From positions 12,338,001 to 12,402,000 of the forward strand of contig OY740804.1 in assembly GCA_963514005.1 (NCBI GenBank): 64,000 nucleotides of DNA, in the 5' to 3' direction. The translations under genes and the position numbers were made by a program. A model generated the notes under the pieces. That model searched no databases, was not told the origin of the DNA, and saw nothing but the letters and a program-made list of their open reading frames with translations. The stretch comes from Raja brachyura. Lineage: Eukaryota. Shown one piece after another: positions 2,879-34,406 of this stretch (its first letter is position 1; every line of letters starts with the position of its first letter).

Positions 2879-3043
2879 CTTTTCTTTACTTTTAGCCGGG
2901 CTGGTGGACTTAGATATTGATCCAGCAGCTTCTTTCTCCACTACTCCAAAGTAACGTTGCTCAGATTGGGTGTGAAACGACACTGTTCCTTTTGGAAGCT
3001 TTTTAATTCGAATTGCATGGTTCCTTTGAGCTGAAAGGACATC
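2879..3043 (-). CDS. CSDE1: CSDE1 coding exon, 165 nt (last exon found in the window)
   Basis: tctaag|GATGTC...GAAAAG|gtaaca; [55 protein letters not shown]. Confidence 0.97.
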
Positions 3044-5950: not shown

Positions 5951-6091
5951 GGGGACAACTGTGAATTCAACCTCATCCGAGATGTGGAGCTGCAGACTAT
6001 CCATGATCTCACTAAAGTGGAAGAACATTCGAGCATCGCGATCTACACATTTAATGAAACCAAATCCATCCCTCATAGCTGCAATCACACC
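5951..6091 (-). CDS. CSDE1: CSDE1 coding exon, 141 nt
   Basis: ctatag|GGTGTG...GTCCCC|gtaagt; [47 protein letters not shown]. Confidence 0.97.
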
Positions 6092-18319: not shown

Positions 18320-18417
18320 TGTTTATTGGTTTCCATGGAGAAAGAAACTTTATCTCCTGTTTCAAGTTGGACATTTCCATCAACATCTTCAGTTGTATAT
18401 GTCAGATAAAACACTTC
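18320..18417 (-). CDS. CSDE1: CSDE1 coding exon, 98 nt
   Basis: tttag|GAAGTG...AAACA|gtacgt; EVFYLTYTTEDVDGNVQLETGDKVSFSMETNK(H). Confidence 0.96.
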
Positions 18418-21399: not shown

Positions 21400-21825
21400 T
21401 GTGTAGGAAGGAACTGCAGATTCTGGTTTAAACCAAAGATAGACACAAAATGCTGCAGTAACTCAGCAGGGCAGGCAGCATCTCTGGAGAGAAGGAATGG
21501 GTGATGTTTCGGGTCGAGACCCTTCTTCAGACTGAGTAGGGGGAAAAGGGGACAAGAGATATAGATGGGGATCTAGAGAGATATAGAACAAATGAATGAA
21601 AGATACGTTAAAAAAAACGGAAACAGGCCATTGTTAGCAGTTTGCTAGGTGAGAACGAGAAGCTGGTGAGACTTGGTGGGGGAGGGACCTCCTTCCTCAA
21701 CTCTGTCCAGAGAACCCAGCAGTCCTTTCAGGTTAGGCAGATATTCACTTGTACCTCCTCCAACCTCATCGACGGTATCAGTTGTTCAATATGTGGACTC
21801 ATACATCGGCGAAGCTCAACATAGA
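21400..21825. mobile_element. Penelope-derived terminal repeat (minus) joined to a plus-strand GIY-YIG fragment
   Basis: ggaaggaactgcag...tttcgggtcgagacccttcttcagact followed by QSFQVRQIFTCTSSNLI. Confidence 0.8.
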
Positions 21826-24607
21826 CCGGGCAATAGATAGATATGATATTTATTAAATCCAAGTTGAAAATGAGATTTATGAGGAATTTTTAGATATATA
21901 AAAATGGAGTAGTAATGGATGGAATATGTTGCCTGGGGAAGTGGAAGAAGCAGATGTGATAGAGGGGGTTTAGATAGGCACATAAATAGACTGGGAAATA
22001 CATAAAGTGCAGGCAAATGGCATAATGGCCAGCCCCGACATAGCAAGTCAAAGGACCTGTTCCCATTCTGTATAGTTTTATGTTCTATAGAGCATTCCCA
22101 GTTCTGTAGTCTTCAACCCAAAATATTAAGTTTCCTTCCGTAGATGCTGTTTTACACTGAGTATTTCCAGCATTTTCTTTTATTAGAAAACATAAAAAAA
22201 TGCCCTTAATGTATTCATATGAACTATATTAACTGCACTATTCTTTGATAAAAGATTTTTCCAGAAAAGTCTTCAAGAGTTTAGCCAAGTACAGACAAAT
22301 GACTATGCGTGGACAATTTGAATCAATTACATAGTTCAGCAGTAACTAGGCATGGCAATCATCTCCCCACAAGGAACCATCTTTACCAACATATTGATAA
22401 CTATGCTGCCTTGTCGGCACATGGGATGCAAAGCAATTTCCAGGTCAAACGCATCAATCCAAAAATCTAACCGGTGCCTTCCCATCATGAAATCATACTT
22501 TAAAAAAAAAAGCCAAATCCAACACACTTTCCACAGTAAAACAAATTTGATCACAGATGACCAATTGTACCTACTGCCGGTGGTGACCTCTGGGTTTCTA
22601 TGGCTTGCTTTAAAGCAGCACAGATTAAATGGAGTCTCGCATTCTAGGTCTCAATCGACACCAGACCCTCTTCAAATATTATTAATTGGGTTTTTAAGTC
22701 ATACCACCCGCCCCATTGCCACCTCTCCAGAACCCCCTAAACCCAACAAAACACCCTCCCAGCTCCTGATGGACAGAAGGCATGTACAAAACATTGAAAC
22801 TAGCAAACTAGCCTGAAAAAACAAATTCCACCAATTGTTATTTTTGTGAACAGAATACAACATAAGAGGGCAGCAAGAACATTTAGTTATAAATTTGGAA
22901 ACTGGTACTTGGCAAAGGAAAATTTAGCAAAATTCAAGGCAGAAAGTTAACTCAGTACAGGCAGATTGTCCATTTATAGCTTTCCATTGTTATCCTATAC
23001 AGGTGCAATTATACTCTGCAGGAGTGTAGGGGGAATAAGCAATTTTAATACCTTTAAGTGGATTTACTGGATTTGCTTTTCATGGTATGTAGAGGATAAT
23101 GTAGAATGAACTAGGAACACACCAAAACATTCATGGAGAAAAACAAATCGAGGGCAAATTTGTCCTTCTTCCAACTTAGTTCTAGCAGTTGAATAGATAT
23201 TGAAGACTACTGGTTTCCCCCCTTCTACCTTGCGACAACTGAGCAAGAATTTTTGAAAGCTCAGCTGATACCAAATCCTGAAGCAAAATCAGAAACCTTT
23301 TGCACTTACAACCTCTGTGCCGGCTTCAATTAAAGAGCATAAAGTCAATACAATAGCTTCAAACCTCTGCATGTGGCCATTTATTGAAACATTTAAAGCA
23401 TTTGCCTTAATGTATTGCAGTTGATGTTTTTGTTCAAGAGAATAACTCTTTGCCGAGAAACACACAACCAATACATTAAGCAAAGTATAGTTTAAATCAT
23501 TCAAATCAACACAAACTCAAACAAACTTTTAAATTATTCTGGCTGGCTGACTAACTTTTGAACCTTTTCTTGAAATAATCCACATTTAAATTAGAACAAG
23601 GCAGCGAGAGAGAAGGATTCAAATTATACAACTCAGTTTTATAGAAGCCACTACTCCCTTGGAACTACAGACACATTCTTAAAGTATAATAATTTAAACA
23701 TTTCCCACATTGGAAGCTCTTCCAAATGAACTGATAGCAAAGTCTCACACTTCAAAAAGCAACAGGGATTACCCAATGACCTTGAAACCTTTCTATTACT
23801 CATGTAAAGTCAAAGCCTGCTTTGTTTAGACAAGCTAGGGCCTAAAATCTCCGACCAAACGCACAAGACACAAAGTAGTCCACATAACGCATGGCAATCT
23901 TATCTCAGGCTGTCAACACATGCAACTTCTGCAAGGGTCATTCATGTCCATCTCTCATATACCCAGAAATTCTCATGTCCGATGTGCTCCCCACTAATCC
24001 ACTGCGTTATAAAAATATCAAACCAGGATAGGGTGGTATTTTGAAGCTTGCTAATGAGGGACCATCTGCAGGTAAACTAGATGTTGATAATGCTCTGCAA
24101 AGGATCCAATGTTTGTCAGGGACTGAAACAAGCATTTGCATCAAATTTAGAAAGTGAAACATCTACCAGTGTTTAAAAATCATGCACACCATTCACTGAA
24201 GGACTAAGCTTGGAGCCAAAATCCTGCAGCTGTAAAAATTGGTTATTAAATTTAAAGCTACATTTGGACATTTTCATGCTTTTGCCAAACAAAATATTTC
24301 TGTTGCTTAATTCTGCACATTTCTATACTTTAAACTCTAGTTTTGTAAAGACTCAACTAATTTTAGCTCTAACGGAATTTTTCCATGATCTTTGTTCAAA
24401 TGCTACCCAAATGGTAAAAGCCAAAATTAGCACAGAACAAGGTTAATGGGGCGTGGAATTTGAGGCAAGAGGTTACCCATATTTATAGGAACCATCTAAT
24501 TTAAAATCAATCTGGCTGACGTATGCATGCATGCCTAAACTCAAGTGCCTATATGGGCGACCTACCTGAAATCATTTATTACCTGGAAAGACAAAATCCA
24601 ATCTTAC

Positions 24608-24706
24608 CCCATTGCGTTCATAGCACACACTGCCTGAAGTCTGACCAGGAGATGAAGGTTTCAGCCCAGATTTGTTCTCAAGGTTAAGGGGAGCAGCACA
24701 GACAAC
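24608..24706 (-). CDS. CSDE1: CSDE1 cassette exon (homolog of the mammalian alternatively spliced 'exon 5'), 99 nt, symmetric phase 0
   Basis: gtccag|GTTGTC...AATGGG|gtaaga; VVCAAPLNLENKSGLKPSSPGQTSGSVCYERNG. Confidence 0.95.
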
Positions 24707-27700
24707 CTGGACATACCATGACATAACAAAGAATAATGTCAGGAGGGTACATGAAGGCTTTCCAGGGGTTGAAAATGCCACTGGTCAAAGGCCCCAGGTA
24801 TGTCTAGTTTTTGGGTTTAGACCAGCAGAAAATATTCCTCCAATGTCTTACGAATTGGTAGAAAAACTTGACTTATTATAGTACCAGATTTCTGCCACTA
24901 GCTATTCTATTCACATTACAGCACATATCTAGCAGCAGTAATTCGGTACTCAAACTAATCAGACCTGCAATGGCCCGACAAACTGATTAAAATTCCAGTG
25001 TCTGTTTCCAAACCACTACATCTAACTTTTCAACCCCTGATTTCCAGATGATTTTTTTGGCAAAAACAGTTCTCTTACAAAGTCAGAAACTTGTAGACAA
25101 CAATAGTCAAAACATATGATGACACTGTTCCATTAGAGAAAGGTAACTTGCACACCAATAAGTATAGTTTCATTCAAACATGAAGATATTATCCTCCACA
25201 TACCATGGGGGAGAAAGAAAATCATGATTCAATGGGGAAACCACTGTTCATCTGTCCCTTTAAGAGATTTGCCCTTGAGCATCCCCGAATTTAGCCCTTC
25301 TGCCATTGGTGGTTATGCTTTTAATAACTCGGCCCCTTTCCTTCAAAACAAAAATCTACTTTTAACAAGATTTTGGTCATCCAACCTAATTCCTCCTTAT
25401 GAGGCTGGGAGTCACACATTTAAAAAATATTTCGCTGTAAAAGTGTTTTCGACGTTGTCAAATGAAAAAATGTATACGGGGTTGCTGTTGATTATCGAAT
25501 TCCCTTTCCAAGTTACATGCAGAAAACCTCTTCAAATCCACTACAAAGTTTATTAATTTTGAGAAGAGTACTTACATTAAGAAAGCCAGAGCAGGTCAGA
25601 CTGCGCTCCCTAGAACTAGGAACAAAGTACAACAAAATGGAAAGCTATATCCAAGAACCCGATTATTAAAGCAAGGCCCAGAACCGGAGAAGAGTGGCGA
25701 GTAAAGGACCAGTACGTTGACTTACTTCAACACAAAATGGAAGTTGAGGTTTTTTTTTTCATTATCCTCCACATACCATGTACATCTCCACAGTAGAATC
25801 TCAAATAATAAGCAGAAAGACTATATTCTGCCAGGCTAAGCATCCAATAAAATATCCACCAATTAGCATCAAATCATGGTATTTTAAAATAAGTAAATAA
25901 TGGATTACATTCAGTAATAACAGTAGAATGTTGTTAAACCTAGAATTTAGTTACCACATGAAATAAAGTGTTACCACAAGAAAACTGCCCTAATCTCAAA
26001 ACAAAACAGCACTGAGAAATACTGTGGGTCTTTTTTTTGTAAACCAGCATCTGCAGTACTTGTATTTACTGAGAAGTAGTTGTTCACTCACCCTGCTGGC
26101 TGATGCTCAAGACACAATGACACCTTCCCACATTTGATATCGTCTAAGCTAATTAATAAACACATCCATACCAAACTCACACTATTGTCCCCCCCTTCAT
26201 AATTTTAGTAACACAGATTACCCATTCAGCCTCACTAATGGAGTACAGAATGCAGTTTATAATTCTTGTGCATCACAATGGAAGTGTTCTACACCTTTTT
26301 ATATACACATTACAGACCACAAGGCATTACAAACTGCACACAAAGCAGGCTCATGCTACCAAGAATGGGAGATCATTCCTCTTCCCCACTGCACTGGTTG
26401 CTGTATTTAAAACCAAATACCTGTAACCATGGCCCATAGTTAAACTGTTATTTTCCGTTATCAGAGAAAGGAATTAATGCAAATGCTTCTCCTTGTTCGA
26501 AAAGTTAAGTGTCCAGTAAGTAAAATTCAAGGACATAACTGGAATTAACCCAATTCCCTTCTACCTTGTTCAAATAAAGATACATTAAATTAGAACTAAT
26601 TCCATCAAAATAAATTGCCATCTGATGATTTAGTATTGGTTGGAACCAGTCTCCCTTCAGGGCTTCAGGGTTTTACCCCCCCTGGCATAATGGAGATTTT
26701 GGAGTCTTTATGAGACTACTCTTTCGTAGCTCGAGTTGTCTAAATGTAATTGCCAGTACTGATACACAATCTCAAATACCCCAAGAAGTAACCCCTTAGT
26801 TTAACAAAATTCAACTATAATAATAATATGCACACAGGGCCAATAATAATGTGTCCAAGTTAGTGATTATGATTTCACTGCACCCAAAACGCCACCATGA
26901 TTGATTTTCCTGGCATGTATAGTTTGCATTGGGGTCTGGATTCCTTCCTCAGACCAATCCCCATTTTCACAAACTAGCTACTCATTATAGGTGAATGTCA
27001 CTTTCTCCTGCCCACTTTTTGGTGTAGGAATCAAAGTCAACATAAAGGGAATGAGAAGGCTATTGGAAAGCACATAATGCAATCTGCATGTACAAGATTG
27101 CCACGTTTGTCGTGCAATTATCCCCTTTCTCCCCAAACAATTGGCAGATCTTATTACTGTCACCAGGTGCTGGTCCTTTGTGACATTTCTACCATTGTTA
27201 AATATGCTGACTCATAGATCATCCTCGATTTAATTATAGTTTGAGGCAGAGGAAAAAAAATGAGGGGAAGATAGAAAGATCAAGCTTAAATATCAAATGA
27301 GAGTCACTGATTAAAAAACTAGTCTCAAAATAAGGGCAACTGCATTGAGAAGGTTCATTTATTTTCTTCCCTGACCAAAACAGATGGGCTCAAATACTAT
27401 TGCCACACACAACTGCATTCTATATATCAGCAGATTAGAGTAAGGCAGGGTCTCTAATGTTCCATCTAAATGGGGCATAAGTGTAAGCAACTTCAAAGTG
27501 TAAGTAACTCAATTCTGTTTATAAAAAAAAAATACAAATAATGGTTAAGTGCTCAACACTGGTAACGAAGCCTATATGTAAACCCAAGAACACCACCACC
27601 AAATATTAGCATGGTTAAATCATGATAACCATATCCATAAATGTAGCAGGTATACTCCAACAGTATATTGCAAGCTACTGTGTACCCAGGTCAATCCAGA

Positions 27701-29501
27701 GTTTCACTTCTCTTCTTGACCTACCCACATTTACCGTACAAATTAAATGTGCATGGACCAGGAATACTTGGCTCAACAATTAAGGAATTATCAACCAATT
27801 TGACAATGACAATTGCACAATCATACCTTTCCTCAGCACAATCAGTTCTTGATCAGTGAAAGTACAATTAGAGTTTTTTCTTGAAGGCATCTGAATTTGC
27901 TTGATTTGATTTTCACAAGTCTAAATGTAATGTTTTAGATGGGAATTCAAAAAGAGAATTTGAACTGTTCCTCGTGAATTTGTAAAGTTTTATGTTTTGA
28001 AACCTAATTTTTTTTAAATGTAAAAATCTAGTTGAATGGCCATGGCTTTTTGAGCAGGGTCCCCGAGATCAAAAGAAATAAAGTTAGTGGTAATTAAGCA
28101 GCACTGTAGACTGGCTTCTCTCACCCACCAAAAACGATTACACCAGATACACGTTGGGGCTGTGATGCCAGGAAGTAAAGAAACATAAATCAGCATAATG
28201 AGTTTTAATCTCAAAATAATGCTGGTAGAGGTGCTCGGTATTATAAATAACCCTTTTAATACAAGGAACACAAGTGGATTTTCCAGAGATCGAAAAAGGT
28301 GCACACTTCATGGATGAAAACAATATCGCCTAAATACCAAAGAACTTCTACAAATATGACAGTAATACTTAAAATTCCTGGCACTCATTAGCCCATTTTC
28401 CCTCAAAATATTACTTATCGTGAAGAGAACCGTTTCTTGCATCCAGTTTGGAGAATGCAATTGAACTTTTAATTTTAACCAGACAACACAAGAGAAAAAG
28501 GTGTGAACAGATGTAGGATTGTGGAACCAAAGTGCTTGCGAATCCAGTCATTGTTGTGCCTGAAGGATAAACTCAAGATTTTACCAAAAGTTGCTTGCAT
28601 TGGAAGAGCACACAAATCGGATTGTGATTAAAGATCATTTGCATGGAGCAGCCAAGGTTGGTGGGGAAATAAACAATATTTCCTGAGAAGTATGGAATGG
28701 AAGGTTCAGAAAGCCAGCACATAGCCAATTCTGACTGTTCCATCGATTAAGAGATTCGCACTACAACTGCAGCTCATTAAAAATAATTAATGTATGTTCA
28801 ATTAGGGCCCCAATAACAGAAAAGCTGAAAATCAATAAGCATCACTTTTTCATGTTGCTCACACACAAGTTCCATCTAGATGAAGGCTATGAAATTTCAA
28901 ACTTGAATCCTCAAGTCTAAGTCTAACAGATGACAATTACTTTCAATACCACCAGGTGGGAGATGCAGACAAGGTACTCTCTCAAAGGAGCAGGAATTCA
29001 ATCATCAGCTTTCCATTGGATTTATTGATTTATGGGAACTACATATGGTATGTGGAGAACAAAGAATTTAACGTACTGACCTTCCTTCACCCACTACCCA
29101 TCCCCATCCCAAGCATTAATATTTTAGGATTTGAAAAAGGTCAGGCTTCCTGCATGCTGTTATTAAAAAAAACTCAATTTGAAGTTGGTAAGACAGTTGT
29201 TCCATAAGATATCTACTTCAATCCATATTAAATAAAATTAGATTGCTGTCGGAGAAGATAATGCATTGTAAATTTAGCTTCGGAACTGTAACTTACAGAA
29301 TAGTAAATACTCTAAGAGTCAGAATTATACAGCATGGAAACAGGCCCATTGGCCCACCAAGTCTGCACTGACTTTCAAACACCCATTCGCACTAATCCAG
29401 TTTTATATTCTCCCCACATTCCCATCAACTCTTTCCAATAGTGTTAATGACGTTGGCAAGATATTTCCCTAATCTCAATGCAGCAACATAATTATCTTTA
29501 C

Positions 29502-29611
29502 CTGACCAGTGATCCTTTCTTCAGGCAAAATTTCAGGCTTTACTTTCAGCAGTTTAACAGCAATAGGTTTTCCAGTCCGTCTGTCAGAGGACACTTCGAA
29601 TTCCACATCAT
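29502..29611 (-). CDS. CSDE1: CSDE1 coding exon, 110 nt
   Basis: ctgcag|ATGATGTG...GGTCAG|gtaaag; (D)DVEFEVSSDRRTGKPIAVKLLKVKPEILPEERITGQ. Confidence 0.97.
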
Positions 29612-34167: not shown

Positions 34168-34406
34168 AAGGGCCTGTCCCACTTGGCGATTTTTTTCAGC
34201 GACTGGCGGCATCATTGACTGACGTATCAGGTCACTGAAAAAGTCGCCGCGTGATGATGTATTGATGAGCGGTGTTTCCTCAGGTGTCGCAACATTTTTG
34301 TCGCTGCTGGATTTTGAAATGTTCAAAATCTTTCAGCAACCCTGATACGTCAGTTAATGATGCTGGCAGTCGCCGAAAAAAAAGTCACCAAGTGGGACAG
34401 GCCCTT
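34168..34406. mobile_element. MITE (non-autonomous DNA transposon, Harbinger-like termini)
   Basis: ~75-bp imperfect TIRs AAGGGCCTGTCCCACTTGG.../...CCAAGTGGGACAGGCCCTT flanked by TA on both sides. Confidence 0.85.

Follow-up and report, generated by a model that had tools for sequence, protein, structure and literature searches.

In CSDE1 (UNR), a broadly acting RNA-binding regulator of translation, the splicing of a small exon past the first cold-shock domain is alternative in animals ranging from sharks to mammals, and no mechanism for its choice was found in the literature searched. The gene as it stands in Raja brachyura raises the question of whether such a mechanism is written into its introns, where copies of a 20-nt motif and their complements surround the exon. 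The window analysed here is a stretch of 64,000 nucleotides (contig OY740804.1, positions 12,338,001 to 12,402,000), and its minus strand carries CSDE1: the translation of one exon is 97% identical to skate proteins and 90-94% identical to proteins of sharks, rays and chimaera. The order of the elements in the pre-mRNA is upstream donor, a complementary arm (A_up), two selector copies (S2, then S1), a motif core at the cassette 3' splice site together with the exon (S0/exon), and a second complementary arm (A_dn) (Table 1). The five motif sites named in the initial annotation are all present, letter for letter, and the 20-bp pairing that it gave A_dn with either selector stands except that S2:A_dn actually spans 21 bp. 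Complementary arms lie on both sides of the cassette exon, as in long-range loop-out pairs, with S1 and S2 upstream and A_dn downstream.

Table 1. Features of the CSDE1 cassette-exon region, in window coordinates. The exons (29611-29502, 24706-24608 and from 18417) were placed by translation and a junction in RNA-like contigs.
Feature	Position	Strand	Basis and remarks
Constitutive 110-nt CSDE1 exon preceding the cassette, encoding the second half of cold-shock domain 1	29502..29611	-	Translation matches CSDE1 proteins; junction to 18417 in RNA-like contigs
A_up, upstream complementary arm	29045..29062	-	439 nt past upstream donor; predicted helix of 18 bp with S1 or S2, including 2 G-U, at about -26 to -28 kcal/mol
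S2, distal selector copy	25761..25780	-	20-mer identical to S1; partial sequestration in a local hairpin with 25695-25709 predicted
Candidate poison exon between selectors, 40/34 nt (unsupported)	25576..25615	-	AG...GTAAGT ends, consensus donor, in-frame stops
S1, proximal selector copy	25188..25207	-	482 nt 5' of cassette acceptor, within constrained block
Constrained block around cassette exon, S0 and S1	24117..25432	.	Low divergence in organisms C, D, E and F
S0, 10-nt motif core replacing the pyrimidine tract of the cassette 3' splice site	24711..24720	-	Sequence; splice-site scoring; Callorhinchus P0129 codons
In-frame cassette exon, 99 nt (33 aa); counterpart of mammalian Csde1 alternatively spliced exon 5	24608..24706	-	CSDE1 protein comparison; PMC5805679 (accessible part)
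A_dn, downstream complementary arm	23081..23100	-	1507 nt past cassette donor; predicted 20-21 bp, 1 G-U, -30.6 to -33.2 kcal/mol; highest accessibility among the four sites
Following constitutive CSDE1 exon, whose acceptor the skipping junction uses	18320..18417	-	Translation, RNA-like contig junction, splice-site score

The 99-nt exon is a true in-frame cassette. It is absent from 57 and present in 108 of the 165 CSDE1 proteins that were parsed (179 stored, 14 unparsed), and the exact cassette peptide of the window occurs in 37 of the 108. The parsed proteins vary by the presence or absence of this one exon, apart from three odd Callorhinchus models with extra upstream residues. The same protein comparison identifies the exon as a cassette in tetrapods and coelacanth also, and exon 5 of mouse Csde1 is alternatively spliced according to the accessible part of PMC5805679. 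In two RNA-like runs (X20 and X21; one study, organism E, RNA status guessed, read as contigs, which drop rare isoforms), the skipping junction has depths of 1870 and 861 and the cassette bin depths of 0 and 1.4; the exon is mostly skipped in both. The earlier proposal that this exon is looped out is upheld to the extent that a true cassette exon lies between the arms and is skipped in the RNA-like runs examined, the pairing itself being predicted.

The motif is specific to this locus. Scanning the window at no more than 3 mismatches gave 3 matches, against 0.00 in 100 shuffles, and A_up is a fourth copy, with 4 mismatches across 20 positions. In the genome (2.7 Gb), the 20-mer has 4 matches at no more than 1 mismatch, 3 of them local and the remaining one at chance level, and its reversed control has 0; the 13-mer core, with 94 matches versus 81 for its control, is at chance level, and 4 of the 94 lie inside this 6 kb. 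Three extra local copies have a probability of about 1e-8, even allowing any seed. These counts confirm the initial view that the motif is not a dispersed repeat; together with a read depth that is single-copy at each of the four sites in 4 DNA runs and the arrangement of the copies as two inverted pairs of opposite polarity, unlike transposon terminal inverted repeats, they also rule out an origin as such a terminus. Viral contigs gave no match, and Rfam no family match (one sub-threshold match, at 26 of 78 bits, lies elsewhere in 18 kb). An insertion of S2 into a repeat, suggested by RNA-like contigs with a joint that omits 25746-25781 (depth 253 and 60, side 20), is likely spurious, as a DNA search of 25660-25880 matched only itself.

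The flanks of the motif copies show no similarity to each other or to the cassette exon. Within 464 kb around the locus there are seven local-only families of at least three exact 13-mers, a family scan having been used because the corresponding pair scan requires a 13-nt exact seed and misses the A_dn pairs. Six of these families have similar flanks and are parts of longer duplications, and only the CSDE1 family has unrelated flanks. Because its genome copies are few and its flanks unrelated, the motif is neither a transposon nor a segmental duplication; it is a locus-specific short motif and not a virus, an Rfam RNA or an exon duplication.

The differences among the copies are biased towards G-U pairs on the sense strand, as had been proposed. 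All three internal differences are G-U on that strand. The stronger wording, that every non-Watson-Crick position is G-U, is correct inside the trimmed arms but fails over the full 20 positions, where the two terminal positions of A_up add a C-A at position 1, which would be G-U on the antisense strand, and a U-U. A further difference comes from organism E, in which both RNA-like runs carry T>C at 25765; this is an A>G in S2 on the sense strand, opposite a U in both arms, and the pairing is kept as G-U. Because it is complete in both runs and lies in a G-A-U context, which is disfavoured for A-to-I editing, this is more likely a genomic change than an edited site. Four of four differences in the G-U direction are suggestive, with p about 0.06 if direction is random. 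The core duplexes are 4.3 kcal/mol stronger on the sense strand than on the antisense strand, and the four pairings are four of the five strongest among 48 unmasked, uninterrupted sense helices of at least 16 bp in 17 kb; on the antisense strand of the same 17 kb, none of them is among the best 12 of 13 helices. Extensions of the helices beyond the cores are no better than random flanks (p 0.16-0.70), and the local hairpin partner of S2 ranks 8th, with background energy. A homotypic cluster of protein-binding DNA sites, acting as an orientation-independent intronic enhancer or silencer, would fit the presence of both orientations near constrained DNA, but is scarcely credible: the core has no genome-wide excess, no second cluster occurs among the 94 genome places listed, and the differences lean to sense G-U.

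The reading favoured here, with a probability of about 60%, is that the four copies are locus-specific intron arms that fold the CSDE1 pre-mRNA, with S1:A_dn looping out the 99-nt exon, which would be skipped by default. The minimum-energy fold of the 6.1-kb region, a length at which folds are unreliable, contains A_up:S2 and S1:A_dn together, and S1:A_dn is still predicted without A_up. Before A_dn is transcribed, the predicted pairing is A_up:S1. The opening cost is 12-14 kcal/mol for S2 versus 7-10 kcal/mol for S1, and this lower accessibility of S2 is why A_up is predicted to prefer S1 in nascent RNA. On the antisense strand the same pairs also fold, in a shorter form; thus, folding alone is no proof of function.

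The initial annotation had described an equilibrium switch of the docking/selector kind, in which pairing with A_up would free the exon and, in addition, a candidate poison exon lying between the two selectors would be gated. The predicted folds point elsewhere. A_up holds only one of the two selectors, A_up:S2 and S1:A_dn coexist, and a freed state is predicted only before A_dn is transcribed. Because both selectors and both arms can find a partner simultaneously, A_up would not free the exon at equilibrium, and any switch would be kinetic. The folds do offer one point in favour of gating: nascent A_up:S1 pairing loops out S2 together with the candidate poison exon, which has a consensus donor and in-frame stops, and neither loop of the full fold contains the candidate. 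However, the candidate is one of six pseudo-exon donors with equal scores by splice-site weights across 32 kb of the gene, it diverges at the neutral rate, and unspliced contigs (depth 3.7-5.5) cross both of its borders; no junction to it occurs among 15 of 52 joints listed. The sequence exists, but exon use is not seen, and the candidate is unsupported, though NMD could hide its use. This version as a whole, equilibrium switch and poison exon together, is highly improbable.

Under the preferred loop-out reading, the finished transcript would carry two tandem helices, A_up:S2 with a 3.3-kb loop and S1:A_dn with a 2.1-kb loop that contains the exon, and silencing would be redundant, since either selector could serve A_dn. 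In nascent RNA, A_up:S1 would bring the cassette acceptor closer to the upstream donor, leaving about 0.9 kb between them in place of 4.8 kb. For the exon to be included, exon definition would have to take place during the 1.5 kb of transcription that precedes A_dn; the proposed kinetic order is A_up:S1 first, followed by S1:A_dn and A_up:S2. We propose more tentatively that this 2x2 RNA relay may serve as a transcription timer, built by cartilaginous fish from the cassette's own 3' splice-site sequence, in which A_up:S1 bridges the exon to the upstream donor until, 1.5 kb later, A_dn displaces A_up, which passes to S2, and locks the loop.

An unpaired A_dn might in addition block the weak 3' splice site via S0. 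Taken further, this gives a reading in which the arms mainly mask splice-site-like sequence, with A_up and A_dn hiding cryptic donors or the acceptor and S1 and S2 titrating them as decoys. Each sense copy carries a donor-like G/GUAUGU, whose score of 3.4 is inside the 1.7-5.1 range of 8 scored real donors, and the cassette acceptor, at -0.1, is the lowest of 11 scored acceptors. S0 is the best A_dn partner in 17 kb after S1 and S2 (-17.1 kcal/mol), and inactive and cryptic sites show an excess of complementary regions according to the accessible part of PMC8052449. Nevertheless, the pairing of S0 with A_dn is 13-16 kcal/mol weaker than that of S1 or S2 and is absent from all three predicted sense folds, S0 is not among the 8 best partners of A_up, and no junction using the S1 or S2 donors occurs among 15 of 52 joints listed. 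Masking as the main role of the arms is thus quite unlikely.

The copies could also be a neutral DNA-level relic: templated insertion or template switching in an ancestral skate would have copied a 20-mer three times in 6 kb, and the complementarity would be idle. The intron comparison that bears on this covers close relatives (organisms C-F, 1.5-3.7% diverged), among which invariance of the 20-mers has little power; it draws on 40 of 345 substitution rows, including all 37 of organism C over 23000-26054. A_dn, S0, S1 and S2 contain none of these 37 substitutions, a result of low power when divergence is 1.5%. In the constrained block, organism C has 0 substitutions or gaps versus about 17-20 expected, the count of about 17 being a conservative estimate because 14 clustered rows were taken out when only 11 should have been, and contigs of D, E and F that span the block have 52, 67 and 26 substitutions versus 114, 96 and 58 expected from their own upstream-intron rates. 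Around A_dn, organism E has 1 difference in 192 nt versus 6.1 expected (p=0.016); we infer that A_dn itself is unchanged in this organism, whose DNA difference at 23150 would account for the one change. S2 sits in DNA diverging at the neutral rate. Contigs have 9-18 gap letters each, and 16 of the 18 in organism C are placed elsewhere; thus, A_up is not deleted. Because most contigs have too few gap letters to remove copies, the motif copies predate the split from organisms C-F.

Several of these results suit an idle relic, among them the neutral surroundings of S2, the lack of any two-sided compensatory change among these close relatives, and the p value of the G-U-type transitions given above. 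Isolated local pairs of at least 18 nt are not rare either, 26 having passed the filter in 464 kb. On the other hand, a relic needs three independent copies of the same 20 nt without a shared flank, and there is no comparable family among the seven in 464 kb. S1 and S2 are still identical despite predating the split from C-F, the one cassette exon under constraint lies between the copies, and the core falls on a 3' splice site whose conservation extends to Callorhinchus. A neutral relic is on the unlikely side.

The splice-site core S0 looks conserved as far as Callorhinchus (elephant shark). Callorhinchus model P0129 reads through the intron end, and the 14 codons before the exon are the same as in the window, which fixes 7 of the 10 S0 letters via the genetic code. 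Beyond cartilaginous fish, a tetrapod-type read-through (P0180) has a plain pyrimidine tract and no S0; a more distant bony-vertebrate form with a 1310-nt upstream intron (L046) has a pyrimidine tract and neither S0 nor S1, its best match having 8 mismatches. A translated-relative search of intron read-through frames gave 1 match for the cassette frame, and 0 of 8 candidates matched for the A_up frame. Because the motif is missing from P0180 and L046, the system appears to be at most chondrichthyan, and the 20-mers are seen only in skate-like relatives. Skipping does not require the motif, since tetrapods and coelacanth have the exon as a cassette too.

The CSDE1 arms resemble those of CASK exon 19 (R3/R4) and PHF20L1 exon 6, which likewise are short intronic arms kilobases apart around a cassette exon with low inclusion (accessible parts of PMC10573301 and PMC8052449); looped-out exons are less included (PMC8052449). 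At -30.6 kcal/mol, a computed value, the CSDE1 arms lie beyond the energies of the validated loop-outs of CASK exon 19 (-21.6 kcal/mol) and PHF20L1 (-23.6 kcal/mol), and several predicted pairs described in the same source had no splicing effect when tested (PMC10573301). CSDE1 is unlike both genes in its two identical selectors, its two partners and its core in the 3' splice site, and also in its predicted pairing and in conservation apparently limited to cartilaginous fish at most. With ATE1 (R1/R4-R3), as portrayed in the accessible part of PMC7797038, the locus shares sense copies that compete for a complementary element, one kind being located at a 3' splice site, and a possible role for co-transcriptional folding, which matters in ATE1. 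However, each of the duplicated mutually exclusive exons of ATE1 has a copy to itself, whereas CSDE1 has one cassette exon, and the 2x2 layout of CSDE1 can pair fully without competition.

The likeness to Dscam-type docking sites and selectors that had been drawn for this locus is limited to repeated short elements complementary to shared sites. The Dscam type, by the definition in the accessible part of PMC6071210, involves tandemly duplicated mutually exclusive exons, one pairing at a time and activation of the exon beside the selector that pairs. CSDE1 has a single cassette exon with no duplicated or mutually exclusive partner and no tandem exon array, the selector flanks are unlike the exon or each other, and A_up:S2 and S1:A_dn co-fold (by computation only). 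Moreover, the pairing is predicted to exclude the exon and not to activate it. The second partner could act like the balancers of Dscam1 (PMC8791459, accessible part).

The literature search found no description of a long-range structure in CSDE1, of a poison exon, of base pairing at the cassette or of work in skates or sharks, subscription papers being outside its scope. The supplementary files of PMC8052449 that were examined do not mention CSDE1, and the full catalogue may lie elsewhere. The locus contains a real, statistically striking and apparently undescribed motif network, most likely a 2x2 variant of long-range exon loop-out. Its near-perfect, genome-unique 20-bp arms and 2x2 layout offer a clean, directly mutable test of whether co-transcriptional folding order sets inclusion. 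If only the loop-out holds, CSDE1 would add a case from an unstudied lineage to a known mechanism. If the arms do act as proposed, different vertebrate lineages could reach the same splicing outcome by different cis elements, and, should the timer also be true, cartilaginous fish would have a switch specific to their lineage, kinetic and made of RNA alone, acting on one exon whose splicing is alternative in all jawed vertebrates.

Two additional donors lie downstream of the in-frame 99-nt CSDE1 cassette exon (24608-24706), both of them inside the constrained block around that exon (24117-25432). The farther one, CAG|GTAGGT, scores 6.1 against 4.0 for the real donor with splice-site weights, and its use would bring an in-frame stop into the CSDE1 transcript. 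If unproductive splicing occurs here, this donor makes a stronger candidate for it than the putative poison exon at 25576-25615 proposed in the initial annotation.

A predicted long-range helix encloses the upstream constitutive exon and the cassette exon. Its arms are each unique as an exact 18-mer, and the downstream arm sits 110 nt beyond A_dn, the motif site downstream of the cassette exon (23081-23100). This pairing may be a chance occurrence, may be SINE-derived, or may represent a sixth and seventh element of the motif set. None of the high-copy SINE-like fragments listed below overlaps a motif site. The window also holds a MITE-like local inverted repeat, and a cluster of differences found in organism C only, a close skate-like relative, is probably a micro-rearrangement.

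Features in and around CSDE1
Feature	Position	Strand	Details
Two additional donors	24566-24607	minus	25 and 42 nt past cassette donor
Predicted 18-bp helix	29980-29997 with 22954-22971	sense	-29.4 kcal/mol; 3 G-U
High-copy SINE-like fragments	26020-26061; 21400-21540; 29328-29406		Dominate read depth
Inverted repeat	34190-34382		Arms of 25 bp plus 16 bp, ~110 nt between
Organism C cluster	23713-23737		11 clustered substitutions, 3 one-letter gaps
Other variable CSDE1 exons	5951-6091; 2879-3043		Example isoforms without them: P0004, P0009, P0021, P0040, P0083

Two other CSDE1 exons are likewise skipped in certain isoforms of shark, skate and coelacanth. In the CSDE1 protein comparison, 37 of the 38 elasmobranch proteins containing the cassette exon share one identical peptide for it, and this peptide shows almost no variation among tetrapods and coelacanth; together these patterns point to nucleotide-level constraint on the cassette exon.
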